Assembly: GCA_964356915.1 (NCBI GenBank)
Contig: CAYHJF010000003.1
Location: 17,579-81,578, forward strand
Direction: 5' to 3'
DNA length: 64,000 nt
DNA from: an uncultured Candidatus Saccharibacteria bacterium
GTDB lineage: Bacteria; Patescibacteriota; Minisyncoccia; Ryanbacterales; GWA2-47-10b
Position numbers: made by a program. Below, piece after piece: positions 9,001 through 18,000 of this stretch. The first letter of the stretch is position 1. Each line of letters opens with the position of its first letter.

Positions 9001-12000
9001 TATGTCCCAACGAACAAAACACGCTTTCCTGATTCTATTCATAACACTTGGTCTTGGCACATGGACCGGAGGTTATCGCTTCATCGAATTCCCTAAATAT
9101 TGGTGGGATGAAAGTTTTACAATCGAGATAGCACGCACAGTGTTAGAAACTGGCCGCGTGGATATTACCATTGCTCCTCACACACCCTCAAACATCGCCA
9201 TCGCACTAAGCGCGAATGGATTCCCAATGTCCCTACCCCTCGCTCTGATGTTTCATATTTTTGGCATTGGCATCTTCCAAGCACGACTCTATATGCTTCT
9301 ATGGCTTATCGGGGGTGCACTCACTCTTTGGCTCTTACTCCGCAAATTCTTCGACGGCACTGACGCAATACTTGCCATGCTACCAGTTATTACATTCGCA
9401 TCATTTTACGCGAATGGCAGAACTGCAACGGGCGACATTCCTGGTTTTTTATTTTTTACTCTCGGTATTGGCATGATTATCGCTGAAGAACGGTATGTGT
9501 TTGGCGGCTTGCTACTCGGACTCGCGACGGTCACGAAGACATCTCTCTATCACATGGCCTTACCAGCAATCTTCTTCTGGTGGCTACTACGCGCGCGCTC
9601 ACTTGGCATACGACCAATTCTTAAGATCGCATCGAGTGCCGCATGTGTTGGAATTTTATGGTTTCTTCTCCTCCTTCCTCGACCCTATGCCTTCTCGCAG
9701 ATCATGCCTGCACTCGAATTTTATAAAAATCCGATCAATAAACCATCACTTCTCATGCGCATGCCGCAAAGTCTTACGGAAATATTTGGATCGACGACCA
9801 TCATTTATTTGCTCGGCATCTGCATCTTAATCACATGGGCACGAGTAAGGAATGGCTTTAGCAAAACCCAGCGAAATTTCATTACGTATGTAGGAATCTA
9901 TAGCATCCTTCAACTAATCGTTTTTCTCCGTAGCCCCGGCTGGCATCGCTACTTACTAGCTGTAGAGCTATTACTACTCTCCGTCCTTTACCCATCACTT
10001 GTCGCTATACTGGGAACATCTCGTAAACGCCTCGCGACATTCGCCACCCTCTTACTCGCTTGTATTCAAACGGGCCACTATATACTGGCTTCATCAATCT
10101 TTCCGCATAAAAATCCTGAACTCCAAGCATCTCATATACAAACGCTTCTTGAAGCAAATCCGGGGAGCACGGTTGGTTTTGTCGATAACCCCATGACTGC
10201 AGCTCTCATTTCTGGAAACCAAAAATATCAACGAGTACATGTTGGCGGACAAACATATGCGGGACGTCATCCTCTCGACTTACCACAAGATCAACTTCCA
10301 ACATTTTTTGTCCCACCCGTAGATGACGAACACGCCATCATCATCAATACACTTTATACGCCCATAGAATCGGATGACGGATTTATCATCTATAAAAAGA
10401 AAGACTAAGATTGCTTCTTAAATTTCTTTAGCACATGACGGGCAATATGTTCTGCCTGTAACTGATGAAATGCTCGCAAATCTTCATGTGATCCTGCTCG
10501 CGTCGTAAACCGATCGCGGACACCAAGACGCAATGTCTTTGTCGGCATAACACTCGAGTCAAAAAGAACCTCTGCAACACTACTCCCTAACCCTCCAATA
10601 ACACTGTGCTCTTCTACGGTAACGATCATCTTCGTTTCGCGAGAAGCTCGAAGAATACTTTTCGCATCAATAGGTTTAATTGTTGGGAATGACAAAATAC
10701 GCACACTTAATCCTCCTTCTTCAAGTAATCGTGCGGCTCCTAAAACATGTACTGCGATAGATCCCGTAACACAGAAGGTAATATCACTCCCCGAGCGAAG
10801 TGTAAGTGCGCGACCAACCCGAAAAGAAGGTTTACGCGTATGAATGAGTTCGTCTCCTTTTTTACCAATACGGATATACACGGGACCCTTTATTGCAGCG
10901 GCTGCCTTCGTCACAAGTTCAGCCTCTACAGGATCTGCCGGAGAAAACACGGTCATATTAGGCAACCCCCTCATCAATCCCAAATCATCAATCGCGTGAT
11001 GCGTAGGGCCCAATTGACCATATACAAGCCCCGCTCCTACACCAATAATTTTTACATTTGCCTGCTGTAATGCAATATCATTACGAATCTGCTCGTACAC
11101 GCGTGCGGTTACAAATGGGATTATCGAATACACAAAAACTGTTTTGCCAGATAACGCGAGTCCTGCGGCAGCACCCATCATATTTGCTTCAGCAACTCCC
11201 ATATTCATCGAACGCGAAGGAAATTGTTCAGTAAAGTGCTCGAGAACAGAAAACCCAAGATCGCCATTCAACAATACAATGTTCGAATTTTTCTTTGCCA
11301 ACCCCTCAAGAGTTTGAATAAATGCAGTTCGCATATTAATCTCTCAGTTCTTTTAAGGCTTGCTCTCCAAGCTCCCCTGTTGGCGAGCGATAATGCCATT
11401 CAAGCTTATCTTCCATATATGAAACTCCCTTTCCTTTAACTGTATGAGCAATAATACACTGTGGTTTACCTTGTGTTTTTTTTGCCTTACCAAGTGCATC
11501 TCTGATCTCTTCGAAATCATGTCCATCAACCTCACTTACATTCCAACGAAATGCTTCAAACTTTTGCTTCAGCGGCTCAAGGTCAAGTACATCTGCGGTG
11601 CGCCCAAAACTTTGAATTTTATTGTAATCAATAATAACTGTCAGATTATCGAGTTTATGAAATCCAGCAAATAATATTGATTCCCATACGGAACCTTCAT
11701 CACACTCTCCATCCGACAGAAGAACGTACGTGCGCCATGCCTTTCGATCCATTCGTGCTGCAAGTGCCATACCGACACCCATCGGTAGCCCATGCCCTAA
11801 CGAGCCAGTAGCCACCTCGACTCCTGGTGCTGAAAAACGCGTTGGGTGAGTAGTAAGATTCGCCCCCAAACAAAACTGATCAAGCTTCTTTTTTGAAAAA
11901 AACCCTCTCTCTGCAAGAGTTGCATACAATACCGCGCCAGCATGCCCCTTACTCAATAAAAAACGATCGCGAAGCGCCCAGTCAGGCCGACGAGGATCAA

Positions 12001-15000: not shown

Positions 15001-18000
15001 ATTAATACCTTCAAGATGTTTGAGCGTATCAACACCCTGCCAAAATCCCGTGTGTTTATACACACCGAGTTGACCTTCTCGTGCCAAACGATTCAACGGT
15101 CCTTGCTCAAACACGCACGAACCAGAAGCATCAAGATATGAAAAAATACTTTTATTGCACACGAAAAATCCACCATTCGTCCAATCACGCGACTGAGGCT
15201 TCTCAACAAAAGATACAACACTATTATCAATAATCTCTAAAACACCAAACGGATTTGTCGTCTTCACTCCCGTCACCGTTACCATCTTATTACTCTTTCG
15301 ATGGTGCTCGAGTAATTGGGTAACATTAATATCTGCAATACCATCCCCGTACGTCACTAAAAATTCTTCGTCTCCTTCTACGTGCTTCGCGGCACGAGCA
15401 ATACGACTACCGGTATCACATTCGAGTCCCGTATCAACAAATGTAATCGTCCACCCAAGAGATTGCTTATCGTGATATTTAATTTCGCGCACTCCATCTG
15501 CAAGACGCAATGTAAAATCATGCGCGGATTCATCATGCTTAAGAAAATACTCTTTAATCATATCTCCCTTATATCCAAGGCACACCACAAACTCATTAAA
15601 ACCATAATATGAATATAGCTTCATGATGTGCCATAACATTGGCTTACCGCCCACCATTACAAGGGGTTTTGGTCGAAACTCCGTTTCCTCACGAAGTCGC
15701 GTGCCCTTACCTCCACATAAAATCATCACCTTCATATCGCCTACCCAACAACACTTTGCATGAAAAATCAAGAGCTATAGGCTCAGCGTGAAATTCTGCC
15801 TATAATACAAGAGTGAAAAATCGCACAATATCTATCATAGTGATTGCTCTCGCAATACGCATTCTTATTGGAGGACTCCTCTTTCTATATAACCCCTCAT
15901 TCCCAGCGATTGGCGGGGATGCTGAAGGATACTGGTCACTCGCGCATAATATTATCGATCAACATGAATATTATGGCCCCGACGAAGCATCCCGAAGTCT
16001 CCGCCGACCTCCTGGGTACCCCTCTTGGCTCGCACTATGGTATGGAATTTTTGGAGAAAACGGACGCTTCCTTGCCTCTTTCATCCAAATAATTCTTACA
16101 GCGATAAGCGCAGGTATTTTATATCAAATCATTACGAAACATTTTTCTAAGCGTGCCGCATGGATTGGGAGCCTTATTTTTGCACTAGAACCAAATAGCG
16201 CCTATTACTCCACACTTCTGCTGAGCGACAGCTTGTTCGTATTTTTTATTGTATATGGATTTCATGAACTTATCGTAAAAGAACGCGTGCTCTACGCAGG
16301 AATACTCTTAGGTGTTGCAGCGCTCATTCGACCTGTCGCGTATTATGTACCCCTTGTTATTTTTATCTACGCTGTCATATCACGTATTCCATTTCGAAAA
16401 TTTGTTTTATATCTACTCGGATTTTTATTAATCATCACTCCGTGGATGGTACGTAACTGGATTGTTGTAGATAGCTTCGATATATCTTCTTCGGGTATCT
16501 CTACATACTACCGCTACGTCTTACCATCATTTCGCGCTTTTGTGTCTAACGGAACGTATGATGACATCCGAGAACAAACAGTCCGTGCATTTGACGACGC
16601 CGTCGCAAAGGGCGCTCGACCAAATGAATTCATGTCTCGAGAACTTCGAAAAGAGATTATAGCTCACCCAATTTCTTACGGCATCTTTCATGCAATTAAA
16701 ACAATACCGTTTTTCCTTGGTGATGGACTTCGCGAAATTTTTCAAAAAAATAATATCCTCGAAGAAAAGCAACCGAATATCTCCTCCCTAGTGATGCATG
16801 GCAAACTCTCTATACTCTCAAAAGAATTTCGAGCGAAACCTTATCTCGCTCTCACGGCAGTCATAAATATCTGGTGGATTGGAATTATCATAAGTGCACT
16901 CTATGGCACTTTGTACGCGTGGCGAGATACGAAAAATAAAAAAACGATAGCAATTCTTTTTGCTCTTTTAATTCTATTCTTTGCCCTATTATCAGGCCCT
17001 GCTTCCACAACACGCCATCGAATGAGCGCTCTCCCCTTTCTTGCAGGACTTGCAGCTATCGGCTGCGATTACTGGCTCTTGCGAAAAACAAAAACTAGAT
17101 CGTAAGCAATATATTTAAAAAACGGAATCCGTACACACACTCGATCACACATATTCCAAAATGGCGCGCCGAATCGATAGAAAAATTTTGGTACAACACC
17201 AATACCATACCAACGGACCACCTCAAGACCATGAGCACGAAATAATCGCCTTGCACTCATCACGCTCATTGTATTTAATTTCCGTCCACGCAATGTAAAT
17301 AAAATCTTGGTAAAAAATCGATAGCTCATGCTGTTCCCGTGGACATTTGCTATAAATATGCTTTGTGAATCATGTAGCTTTGGAACAAGTACTTTCAATG
17401 CCGCCTCTCTCAATTCTGATTGAGCATTAAGAAAAAATCGAAACGCAGTAATAATATTAAATGTTCTATCCTTGAAAACATCAGCTACGGTTAAATCTGC
17501 AACGATATATTCTGCGCGCACCGTCTTATGTCGTGCCTCGTCGATCATCTCACTGGCAATATCAACACCCGTCACATGCGTCACCTTATCCTCAAGAAAA
17601 ACTGTGATACGTCCCGTACCACAAGCGAAATCAAGTGCATCCCCAGTAGAATAACTTGCAAGCTCACGAGCAAGAATGCCCTGTTCAATCTCCCATATAC
17701 GATCATCGTAGGAACCCGCACGATAAATCATCCGCTCATACTGATCGGTTTTTCGAATACTTTGGTGAGAAATTCGATAATCTTTCATTGAATACCAGAA
17801 ACTATACCATGAATGGCATGGCTAAAAAACCTATGTTAGCATTGAACAATCCATGAACCATCGCATATTAGGCGTTATCGCCATCATCATACTTATCGTA
17901 ACGATTAGCCTCGGGATTGCGTTTCGTACTGAGTCATCTCGTATTAACGCGTGGCAATCACCACTTTTTCAATTCGTCATCCATACATTCCGGTCATTTC

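Follow-up and report, generated by a model that had tools for sequence, protein, structure and literature searches.

The locus described here lies in a stretch of 64,000 nucleotides (hereafter the window; contig CAYHJF010000003.1, 130,603 bp long, positions 17,579 to 81,578) from a metagenome-assembled genome of Patescibacteria, or candidate phyla radiation (CPR), from groundwater of the Hainich aquifer, and it encodes a split transketolase-like (TK-like) enzyme in the midst of genes for CDP-hexose synthesis. The open reading frames (ORFs) of the window were listed and then scanned against Pfam, the NCBIfam/TIGRFAM models and the PDB, giving six consecutive minus-strand genes that span 10405-15735. 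The first in the direction of transcription (14932..15735) codes for an rfbF-like glucose-1-phosphate cytidylyltransferase, which would make CDP-glucose (TIGR02623, 298 bits against a cut-off of 300.25; Pfam NTP_transferase), and the second for a Nudix-fold protein (14097..14846, with the ATG at 14840 as the likelier start; Pfam NUDIX, 28.5 bits). Two proteins of the short-chain dehydrogenase/reductase (SDR) type follow. SDR1 (13073..14074, starting probably at the ATG at 14053) is CDP-glucose 4,6-dehydratase-like, scoring 210 bits with TIGR02622, below the cut-off of 278; its top PDB matches, 1wvg and 1rkx, are both CDP-glucose 4,6-dehydratases, and the S-D-K and YxxxK motifs align. SDR2 (12126..13076) is an extended SDR (Pfam Epimerase, 153 bits) with generic PDB matches (MoeE5, GalE-like) that include both 4-epimerases and dehydratases and do not discriminate a reductase from an epimerase; the search for its homologues returned only the generic name "NAD-dependent epimerase/dehydratase". 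The last two genes encode the halves of the TK-like enzyme: TK-N (11336..12145), the thiamine diphosphate (ThDP)/PP-domain subunit (PF00456, Transketolase_N, 160 bits; PDB 6yak N chain, 2.8e-78), and TK-C (10405..11334), the subunit with the Pyr and C-terminal domains (PF02779, Transket_pyr, and PF02780, Transketolase_C; PDB 6yaj, 2.3e-65).

An earlier note on this DNA had listed the same six genes, and all are present at the positions it gave, with family assignments that hold. Its description of the group as packed with overlaps of 1-20 bp applies to two of the five junctions: SDR1 and SDR2 overlap by 4 nt (ATGA) and SDR2 and TK-N by 20 nt, whereas the other three are gapped, with 1 nt between TK-N and TK-C, 85-91 nt between rfbF and the Nudix gene, and 22-43 nt between the Nudix gene and SDR1. 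This last gap holds a terminator-like hairpin with a T-run (14077..14098, minus strand; a 9-bp GC-rich stem and a 4-nt loop, then TTTTTGTTG), with a folding energy of -13 kcal/mol and a z of -2.9. Because of these spacings and the hairpin after the Nudix gene, the tightly coupled unit is SDR1-SDR2-TKN-TKC, and rfbF with the Nudix gene possibly forms a separate transcript.

As the extent of a pathway, the interval 10405-15735 contains the right genes but omits two more. One of them (7016..8236, minus strand) encodes an RfbH/E1-like CDP-4-keto-6-deoxyglucose 3-dehydrase of the type dependent on pyridoxamine phosphate (PMP), with 340 bits for the RfbH model NF011936 (cut-off 423), no aminotransferase model scoring above 149 bits, and E1 (3bcx, 1e-73) as its top PDB match. 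A catalytic histidine replaces the lysine that would bind pyridoxal phosphate (PLP), SFYGSH being aligned to SFYPAH of E1, and the same is true of all 22 RfbH-like proteins compared with E1; this histidine is the mark of E1/ColD dehydrases, and PDB 3bb8 is a His-to-Lys variant of E1. The [2Fe-2S] cluster of E1 is absent, with DCYCAPGCDNTC of E1 reading MSSLFGESKGSEDL and three cysteines in the whole protein. The Fe-S cysteines are gone, and the catalytic histidine kept, in the CPR versions generally (window, L001-L005, L033, L046, L168 and L169), whereas the archaeal, Paenibacillus and other versions keep the cluster motif WGRDCxC...NTC. Also, no Fer2/FNR-type gene for an E3 partner (RfbI/AscD) was found within the window. 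Since both the cysteines and the E3 gene are missing, the CPR 3-dehydrase is probably independent of E3 and ColD-like, with PMP recycled by glutamate. The other omitted gene (6094..7032, minus strand) overlaps the RfbH-like gene and encodes an ArnC/PgfS-like family 2 glycosyltransferase (GT2; NF047588 PgfS, 211 bits, and NF007986 ArnC, 144 bits, both below cut-off).

The residues of the TK-like enzyme were read from an alignment to the split transketolase of Carboxydothermus hydrogenoformans (6yak/6yaj) and to human transketolase, and are given in E. coli numbering. The enzyme belongs to the transketolase superfamily: PF00456, PF02779 and PF02780 are all above their gathering scores, and it retains His26, His66, His100, His261, His473, the cofactor Glu411 and the Asp/Asn metal ligands, together with the equivalents of Arg358, Ser385 and Arg520. 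However, His461 and Asp469, which bind the acceptor in a bona fide transketolase (EC 2.2.1.1), are replaced, as are several other residues. In TK-C, His461 is a glycine and the Val/Ile next to it a tyrosine, Asp469 is a leucine, and the Gln/Met after His473 is a histidine; in TK-N, Ile189-Asp190 is Ser-Phe, Gln118 of GPLGQG is a histidine (GSLGHG), and GDG reads SDG. In the E. coli enzyme, Ser385 touches the substrate phosphate, Ile189 lines the pocket, and replacement of Asp469 is the classic route to non-natural acceptors (PMC5073344). Judged by these residues, the split enzyme is very probably a variant and not an ordinary enzyme of the pentose-phosphate pathway. Two other assignments were considered and rejected: a DXS-like function, since the donor C1-OH histidines are kept and transketolase models score higher, and a phosphonopyruvate/sulfopyruvate decarboxylase, which belongs to another superfamily.

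The signature formed by these replacements (Gly461, a non-acidic residue at 469 and Ser-Phe/Leu at 189-190) recurs widely. When matches to TK-N and TK-C were drawn from a database of 5.8 billion proteins, it was present in all 120 best TK-N matches, and 117 of the best 150 TK-C representatives (at 50% identity) had Gly461 with a residue other than Asp at 469. Position 469 is Leu in 57 of the representatives, Ala in 18 and Gln in 12, and only four are canonical, the first of them at rank 70. Moreover, a TK-N scan of the GTDB species-representative genomes, which do not include the genome of the window itself, gave 80 loci (L004-L083) in CPR bacteria, DPANN archaea, methanogens, Acidobacteria, Actinoplanes, Proteobacteria, Planctomycetes, Firmicutes and others, and the signature is present in all but 2 of the ~84 TK pairs found by scanning genomes. 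In a neighbour-joining tree of the concatenated N and C halves, built without bootstrap, the canonical enzymes (Chy, L056 and L029a) stand apart from the variant family, and the window falls in a predominantly CDP-type clade.

The ORFs of the loci were searched with the window proteins and with reference neighbours. Among the 83 loci L001-L083, 26 are of the CDP type, with RfbF and/or an RfbH-like protein and usually an RfbG-type dehydratase; 35 have a PglF-like 4,6-dehydratase, a DegT aminotransferase and a PglC-like transferase; 11 lie beside genes for 2-oxoacid dehydrogenase E1/E2; and 11 are uninformative. Genes for Tal or Rpe are nearby only in L029 and L056, which are exactly the two loci with a canonical His/Asp transketolase. 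The closest relatives (L001-L003, TK-N 73-76% identical) share with L004, L005 and L168 the order RfbF-(Nudix)-SDR1-SDR2-TKN-TKC-RfbH-GT2-Wzy_C, in which the RfbH-like gene is directly 3' of TK-C. The rfbF gene heads the module in L001-L004, L168 and L169; the GT2 homologue is 3' of RfbH in L001-L005, L168 and L169, and such a homologue is present in 13 CDP-type loci overall. Synteny with RfbF, RfbG-like, RfbH-like and SDR2 genes is kept across CPR bacteria, DPANN archaea, methanogens, Paenibacillus and others.

The control set of 80 loci (L088-L167) came from a scan of metagenomes in which the canonical TK-N of L029 served as the query. All 63 of the 63 TK-C sequences in this set keep His461 and Asp469, and variant TK-C occurs only as the second pair of L088 and L089, which come from the same organism as L029. 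When the comparison of neighbours was limited to loci of at least 6 kb, a pentose-phosphate gene (Tal or Rpe) was found near 0/77 variant and 24/43 canonical loci (nominal Fisher p 7e-14), and a gene of an NDP-sugar 4,6-dehydratase pathway near 58/77 variant and 0/43 canonical loci (nominal Fisher p 6e-18), the p values being nominal in that the loci are not phylogenetically independent. In the window with its 10-kb flanks (~84 kb), no pentose-phosphate gene, and so no tal/rpe/rpi association, was found, and neither was a second transketolase, a YerE-like gene or an E3 reductase.

Two natural experiments bear on the role of the TK pair. In the first, a Micrarchaeota contig (MNVF01000085.1, L029) carries both types of enzyme within 6 kb. 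A pair with canonical residues lies in an rpe-tktN-tktC-tal operon, and a variant pair lies ~1.5 kb from it in divergent orientation; after this variant pair come genes for an SDR, an FkbM methyltransferase and a GT2. With the model NF004559, the canonical halves score 311 and 315 bits and the variant halves 281 and 197 bits. The same contig also codes for RfbF and for a dehydratase of the SDR1 type, whose partner there is a bona fide RfbH (669 bits); this rfbF-rfbG-rfbH group adjoins the canonical operon. The dual arrangement is repeated in L088/L089, also from Micrarchaeota.

In the second, a locus from another well of the Hainich aquifer (L169/L170) reads PMT_2-RfbF-Nudix-SDR1-RfbH-like-ArnC-like GT2-Wzy_C/TPR-Bac_transf-MurB and is syntenic with the window, but lacks exactly SDR2, TK-N and TK-C. 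The genes shared by L169 and the window are 50-72% identical (SDR1 72%, GT2 65%, Bac_transf 57%, RfbH 56%), except Wzy at 39%. Elsewhere, SDR2 is immediately 5' of TK-N (overlapping or within less than 125 nt) in 14 loci from CPR bacteria, archaea, Afipia, Paenibacillus and Bacilli, and an extended SDR directly abuts the TK pair in 21/81 variant loci. Because L169 lacks exactly these genes and the SDR2/TK-N adjacency extends across phyla, SDR2-TKN-TKC behaves as a mobile three-gene cassette in an otherwise ordinary CDP-dideoxyhexose module. The module also exists in a cultured strain, Paenibacillus chibensis NBRC 15958 (L067; NZ_BIMK01000005.1, ~245.8-252.7 kb), where RfbH-RfbF-RfbG-SDR2-TKN-TKC and a TylF-like O-methyltransferase gene lie on one strand with tight junctions, preceded by genes for a UDP-GlcNAc 2-epimerase, a PglD-like acetyltransferase and a DegT aminotransferase. 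The TK pair of this strain lies at ~250.2-251.9 kb.

Taken together, these data suggest, with a probability of roughly 0.6, that the genes of the locus serve to make a C-4-branched 3,6-dideoxyhexose destined for the cell surface, to which the TK-like enzyme would contribute the two-carbon branch. By homology, RfbF would produce CDP-glucose, and SDR1, as an RfbG-type 4,6-dehydratase with the expected motifs, would convert it to CDP-4-keto-6-deoxyglucose, from which the RfbH/E1-like enzyme would strip the 3-OH to give CDP-4-keto-3,6-dideoxyglucose. TK-N and TK-C would then form dihydroxyethyl-ThDP from a ketose phosphate or hydroxypyruvate; this intermediate, and not the hydroxyethyl-ThDP of pyruvate-using enzymes, is expected because the histidines that hold the donor C1-OH are kept. 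Since His461 and Asp469 are gone, the carbanion is predicted to go to the C-4 ketone of the CDP-sugar and not to an aldose phosphate, which would make C-4 a tertiary alcohol that bears a 4-C-glycolyl branch, and Arg358 and Arg520 may hold the CDP diphosphate. SDR2, with NAD(P)H, would reduce the ketone of the side chain to a 1,2-dihydroxyethyl group, a role analogous to that of YerF or Pau7. Finally, to go by the family roles, the ArnC-like GT2 would load the sugar on polyprenyl phosphate, and one of the adjacent PMT_2/GT-C enzymes would move it to a surface acceptor outside the membrane.

In its essentials, this agrees with what the earlier note had put forward. Its view that the split transketolase is not a housekeeping enzyme is borne out by the variant active site, by the neighbours of variant and canonical loci and by the occurrence of both types on one contig. 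The proposed two-carbon transfer onto a CDP-4-keto-6-deoxyhexose, in the manner of YerE or AviB, gains support from the signature, from the conserved synteny with sugar genes and from the cassette-less locus L169. The acceptor is more likely a 3,6-dideoxy-4-keto sugar than the 4-keto-6-deoxyhexose proposed there, because a 3-dehydrase belongs to the module.

Among the PMT_2 genes, that at 8924..10408 (plus strand) is convergent with TK-C; its product is an ArnT-like membrane glycosyltransferase of the GT-C type, named from Pfam PMT_2 in the gene calls of the contig, with a homologue in L001 (419 bits), and it is a candidate for the final transferase from a lipid-linked sugar. Together with a small GT2 gene at 8251..8976 (minus strand), whose product weakly resembles DPM1/AglJ-like polyprenyl-phosphate hexose transferases (NCBIfam TIGR04182 and NF041391), it forms an insertion between TK-C and RfbH relative to L001-L004. 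Downstream of the ArnC-like GT2, at 3851..6097 (minus strand), is the gene for a membrane protein that resembles Wzy_C/O-antigen ligases and carries TPR repeats (both Pfam families, Wzy_C and TPR, come from the gene calls), which is kept at this position in L001-L003, L168 and L169.

A search of the literature on transketolases in combination with CDP-glucose, O-antigen, rfbF/G/H or 3-dehydrase found no description of such a gene combination. The annotation tables of certain O-antigen loci, such as those of Leptospira, list TK-like genes to which no function is assigned. The nearest known logic is that of YerE and YerF, which serve yersiniose A synthesis in Yersinia pseudotuberculosis (with ErwE and MMAR_2332 as further cases) and, like the window genes, belong to a surface-glycan locus with steps of the RfbF/RfbG/RfbH type. 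The natural acceptor of YerE is CDP-3,6-dideoxy-4-keto-D-glucose, to whose C-4 ketone a unit of two or more carbons is added before the side chain is reduced (PMC12247030). The same logic, on YerE's own substrate, is what is proposed for the window, but with another ThDP superfamily and a hydroxylated two-carbon unit. YerE is a single-chain enzyme of the decarboxylase (acetolactate-synthase-like) superfamily that makes an acetyl branch from pyruvate, whereas that of the window, made of two subunits, falls in the transketolase superfamily, and its conserved donor C1-OH residues lead one to expect a glycolyl (hydroxyacetyl) branch. The YerE architecture, a single chain of TPP_enzyme_N/M/C with an FAD-binding middle domain, differs from that of the window enzyme, and no TPP_enzyme_N/M/C protein is found among the window ORFs of at least 150 aa.

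The pairs AviB1/AviB2 and Pau11/Pau12, the latter with Pau7, resemble the proposal in that a two-subunit ThDP enzyme places a two-carbon branch at C-4 of an NDP-keto sugar, the branch being reduced by a separate ketoreductase; in paulomycin synthesis the branch ketoreductase Pau7 acts after the ThDP step (PMC4753412). However, these pairs are E1 alpha/beta proteins (E1_dh) that use pyruvate, whereas TK-N belongs to Transketolase_N (159.9 bits, against 26.9 bits for E1_dh); also, Pau7 is an aldo-keto reductase and SDR2 an extended SDR. The analogy with YerE and AviB is thus one of role and does not extend to sequence, the window enzyme being of neither family. The TK-like enzyme would be an analogue of YerE in function and a member of the transketolase superfamily by descent.

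Among transketolases proper, the split enzyme of C. hydrogenoformans has the same two-gene architecture and the same cofactor and donor residues, and differs from the window enzyme at His461, Asp469, Ile189-Asp190 and Gln118, in clade and in gene neighbourhood. Related in proposed role are the split-gene transketolases of miharamycin and amipurimycin, for which addition of a hydroxyacetyl branch to a keto sugar was proposed and never shown; 13 further candidates are all Streptomyces split transketolases, none of them characterised, and branching of the lipopolysaccharide type was ascribed to YerE-like enzymes (PMC12247030). These share with the window a split transketolase in a neighbourhood that makes keto sugars, but, compared by description only, they lie in actinomycete antibiotic clusters with nucleoside-type sugars, whereas the window and its relatives are envelope-glycan loci with CDP-hexose genes. 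The CDP-3,6-dideoxyhexose pathway itself (RfbF/DdhA, RfbG/DdhB and RfbH/DdhC, the last being E1) has homologues of its first three enzymes in the window; there, however, E3 (RfbI/DdhD) is missing and the E1 homologue lacks the [2Fe-2S] cysteines.

Several points weigh against the branched-sugar pathway proposed here. The donor, the acceptor and the reaction type of the variant family are all inferred, and SDR2, a generic extended SDR, could be a plain C-4 reductase or epimerase. RfbF, SDR1 and the RfbH-like protein all score under their curated equivalog cut-offs. The variant family also occurs beside PglF-like/DegT/PglC genes (35 loci) and E1/E2 genes (11 loci), and because the signature is found there too, it may mark only an acceptor that is not an aldose phosphate, with no specificity for keto sugars. 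Moreover, the tree lacks bootstrap support and the loci are related to each other, and the presence of a second transketolase in the genome is judged from ~84 kb only; among canonical-TK contigs from the same aquifer, the best tetranucleotide match to the window had r = 0.87, against 0.96-0.98 for its own flanks. Finally, we know of no description of a natural 4-C-(1,2-dihydroxyethyl)-3,6-dideoxyhexose.

Four alternatives were weighed against the branched-sugar pathway. In the first, the enzyme would deliver an activated two-carbon (glycolyl) unit to an acceptor that is not a sugar or not a ketone, for example by oxidative transfer to a thiol or carrier in the manner of QncN/QncL/QncM, for an O- or N-glycolylated glycan, or to an aldehyde as an AziC5/C6-like extension. 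The known split transketolases from outside the pentose-phosphate pathway do exactly this: QncN/L/M and SclQ transfer the unit to a lipoyl/ACP acceptor (ACP, acyl carrier protein; PMC6335953), and AziC5/C6 to an aldehyde (PMC9570651). As is proposed for the window enzyme, QncN/QncL/QncM, SclQ1-4 and AziC5/C6, split transketolases recruited out of primary metabolism, bring two carbons from ketose phosphates to a non-canonical acceptor, and the 11 variant loci beside E1/E2 lipoyl enzymes, with lipoyl domains fused to some homologues, add to the appeal of this explanation. However, the Qnc and AziC enzymes use a lipoyl/ACP thiol or an amino-acid semialdehyde as acceptor, whereas the neighbours in the window are CDP-sugar genes, and no gene for a lipoyl protein, E2, ACP or acyltransferase is found near the TK genes in the window or in the CDP-type loci. 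Also, should the RfbH-like protein be a dehydrase, the CDP branch would offer no amino group for acylation, and the E1/E2-type enzymes form a clade of their own, apart from that of the window, in the tree without bootstrap. This alternative is therefore considered unlikely.

A second alternative, which appears quite unlikely, is an Arn-like pathway, in which the RfbH-like protein would be a 4-aminotransferase giving a CDP-4-amino-4,6-dideoxyhexose that passes to polyprenyl phosphate (ArnC-like) and to a GT-C enzyme (ArnT-like). The substrate of the TK/SDR2 cassette would then be the 4-keto-6-deoxy intermediate, not a 3-deoxy one, or else the cassette would serve a side branch. The set of a dehydratase, a DegT-family enzyme, an ArnC-like GT2 and a PMT_2 protein does mirror ArnA/B/C/T, the CPR protein has neither the Fe-S cysteines of E1 nor an E3 partner, the L169 operon contains no obvious C-4 reductase, and some CDP-type loci (L011, L024, L061 and L080) are without RfbH. 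Against this, histidine takes the place of the PLP lysine in 22/22 RfbH-like proteins, and the RfbH model exceeds every aminotransferase model by 340 bits to at most 149.

In the third alternative, the pair would serve the non-oxidative pentose-phosphate pathway as its housekeeping transketolase and would lie among sugar genes by chance. This would fit the frequency of split transketolases in small genomes, the intact fold and cofactor residues, the functional split transketolase (6yak) that is the nearest solved structure, the single TK pair in ~84 kb, and the NF004559 scores of 293.5 (N half) and 209.7 bits (C half), whose sum of 503 exceeds a cut-off of 488 made for the fused protein. It is nevertheless very improbable, as His461 and Asp469, kept in all of the canonical controls, are replaced together with further first-shell residues, the tal/rpe neighbours of canonical loci are missing, L029 has a canonical pair inside an rpe-tkt-tal operon as well as the variant pair, the TK genes are dispensable in the same island of L169, and the genome scan found the variant also in Paenibacillus, Actinoplanes and Azospirillum, which presumably have a full-length tkt. 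The last, that the TK pair is a decaying paralogue or structural partner irrelevant to the sugar and that SDR2 is the C-4 reductase of a paratose- or abequose-type 3,6-dideoxyhexose, gains from the facts that sequence does not tell SDR2 from NDP-sugar 4-reductases or epimerases and that RfbF, RfbG, RfbH and one reductase make up a complete known pathway, but has very little chance of being right, because the strict conservation of ThDP, metal and donor residues over more than 100 diverged clusters points to selection for catalysis, and the TK pair, which is in translational coupling with SDR2, travels together with that gene as one cassette.

Beyond the CDP-type loci, the variant enzyme is found in two other gene settings. 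The PglF-like module is present in ~35 loci from Acidobacteria, Actinoplanes, Bacteroidales and Saccharibacteria, among them L010, L012, L041, L047 and L048. It combines a dehydratase of the UDP-GlcNAc 4,6-dehydratase type with an aminotransferase of the DegT family and a PglC-like phosphoglycosyl transferase, to which L012 adds an aldo-keto reductase and a TylF-like methyltransferase. Its product may be a branched or side-chain-aminated sugar of the bacillosamine type. The E1/E2 group is monophyletic and made up of L007, L009, L013, L014, L018, L025, L027, L030, L037, L050 and L058, all from Acidobacteria. Its TK genes sit right after those for E1alpha, E1beta and E2 (lipoyl) and before an adh_short reductase, and in related proteins (P0076, P0078, P0085 and others) E3-binding and lipoyl domains are fused to TK-N. 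By analogy, this group resembles the glycolyl transfer of QncN/L, here outside actinomycete antibiotic clusters. Also, a methyltransferase gene of the TylF- or FkbM-like kind lies immediately next to the variant TK genes of unrelated phyla, in L012 (9239-9973), L067 (11713-12471) and L029 (12664-13548), with one in the window at 17069-17788; this recurring neighbour hints at O-methylation of the branched sugar.

The Nudix-like protein belongs to a small family, with only 11 homologues among 5.8 billion proteins. Its Nudix box is altered, reading RVLAKE in the window and RVLxKE in the family instead of REUXEE; the invariant positions of the family are GWHMPGGY..GE..RRVLxKE and VPNHQ...HH, and the protein ends in a beta-alpha extension of ~90 aa. 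An AlphaFold2 (AF2) model made from the alignment of the 11-sequence family has a mean pLDDT of 82.6 and a Nudix fold, and Foldseek places it nearest to the Nudix domains of NrtR and AraR, which are non-hydrolytic and bind ligands, and to CDP-Chase and UDP-X diphosphatase. From this model, a role in binding, sensing or hydrolysing a CDP-sugar is possible. The gene is found between rfbF and SDR1 in the CPR loci L004, L168 and L169/L170, and since its occurrence does not depend on the presence of the TK cassette, it falls outside the cassette. An ordinary Nudix gene is present elsewhere in the window, at 38451-38903.

The module forms part of a larger glycan island, in that the window from ~2.5 to 60 kb consists almost wholly of glycan-biosynthesis genes (GT1/GT2/GT4, six PMT_2/GT-C proteins, methyltransferases, Gmd, an aminotransferase, a carbamoyltransferase and a Wzx-like flippase), and the 10-kb flanks past both ends hold ordinary housekeeping genes. 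The PMT_2 proteins are encoded at 8924-10408, 15813-17105, 20189-22903, 35479-36801 and 45468-46772, plus one taken from the gene calls; that at 20189-22903 is a 904-aa protein with an N-terminal PMT_2 (GT-C) part and a C-terminal beta-propeller of the PQQ-like/ACSF4 type. The adjacent gene (17853-20192) encodes a CotH-kinase-like and NosD/beta-helix protein of 779 aa, which is kept beside the CDP-sugar/TK module in L001 (2421-4832, 915 bits) and L168 (1-1058). Adjacent VTC-domain and DUF4956 proteins, perhaps related to polyphosphate, are encoded at 33491-34887, with a 452-aa nitroreductase-family protein (30529-31887) and a 534-aa ORF that matches no family (31875-33479) upstream. Two tandem paralogues of the RNA ligase RtcB lie in the middle of the island (48593-50032, 181 bits, and 50035-51435, 114 bits), followed by a CDP-alcohol phosphatidyltransferase gene (51438-52265).

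No RNA family was detected by an Rfam scan of the window, and a promoter scan was uninformative, with fewer consensus promoters than in shuffled sequence. The GC skew runs from -0.09 to -0.25 over 60 kb whatever the gene strand, and reaches ~0 to +0.08 only at 60000-62500, in the GC-richer 5' part of the gene at 60213-63758 for a 1181-aa protein with a peptidoglycan-binding domain. This change was rejected as a replication landmark, being confined to one compositionally odd gene.

Finally, ThDP-dependent branching of NDP-keto-sugars is itself known, from YerE-type and E1-type enzymes, and what would be new is a distinct and widespread family derived from transketolase that performs it in envelope-glycan loci. 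It is possible, at slightly less than even odds, that the variant split transketolases constitute a large unrecognised subfamily of ketone-accepting enzymes that place a glycolyl branch on C-4 of NDP-4-keto-6-deoxyhexoses derived from CDP-glucose or UDP-GlcNAc. The variant subfamily comprises more than 100 clusters at 50% identity, from CPR bacteria, DPANN and methanogenic archaea, Acidobacteria, Actinoplanes, Bacteroidales and Paenibacillus. If this is true, its products would form a class of surface sugars, with a two-carbon branch and a tertiary alcohol, for which there has never been a chemical description, and the CPR members would be paired with a 3-dehydrase of the E1 type that is free of Fe-S and independent of E3. 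The signature separates such enzymes from housekeeping transketolases, whereas annotation gives all of them the plain name "transketolase", and the analysis offers a candidate substrate, CDP-4-keto-3,6-dideoxyglucose, together with a cultured carrier, P. chibensis NBRC 15958. Confirmation would establish a new enzyme class making hydroxylated tertiary alcohols and would mend metabolic reconstructions in which such genes are counted toward the pentose-phosphate pathway of reduced genomes. Moreover, it would predict new branched sugars on the envelopes of CPR bacteria and DPANN archaea, whose surfaces are almost unknown.

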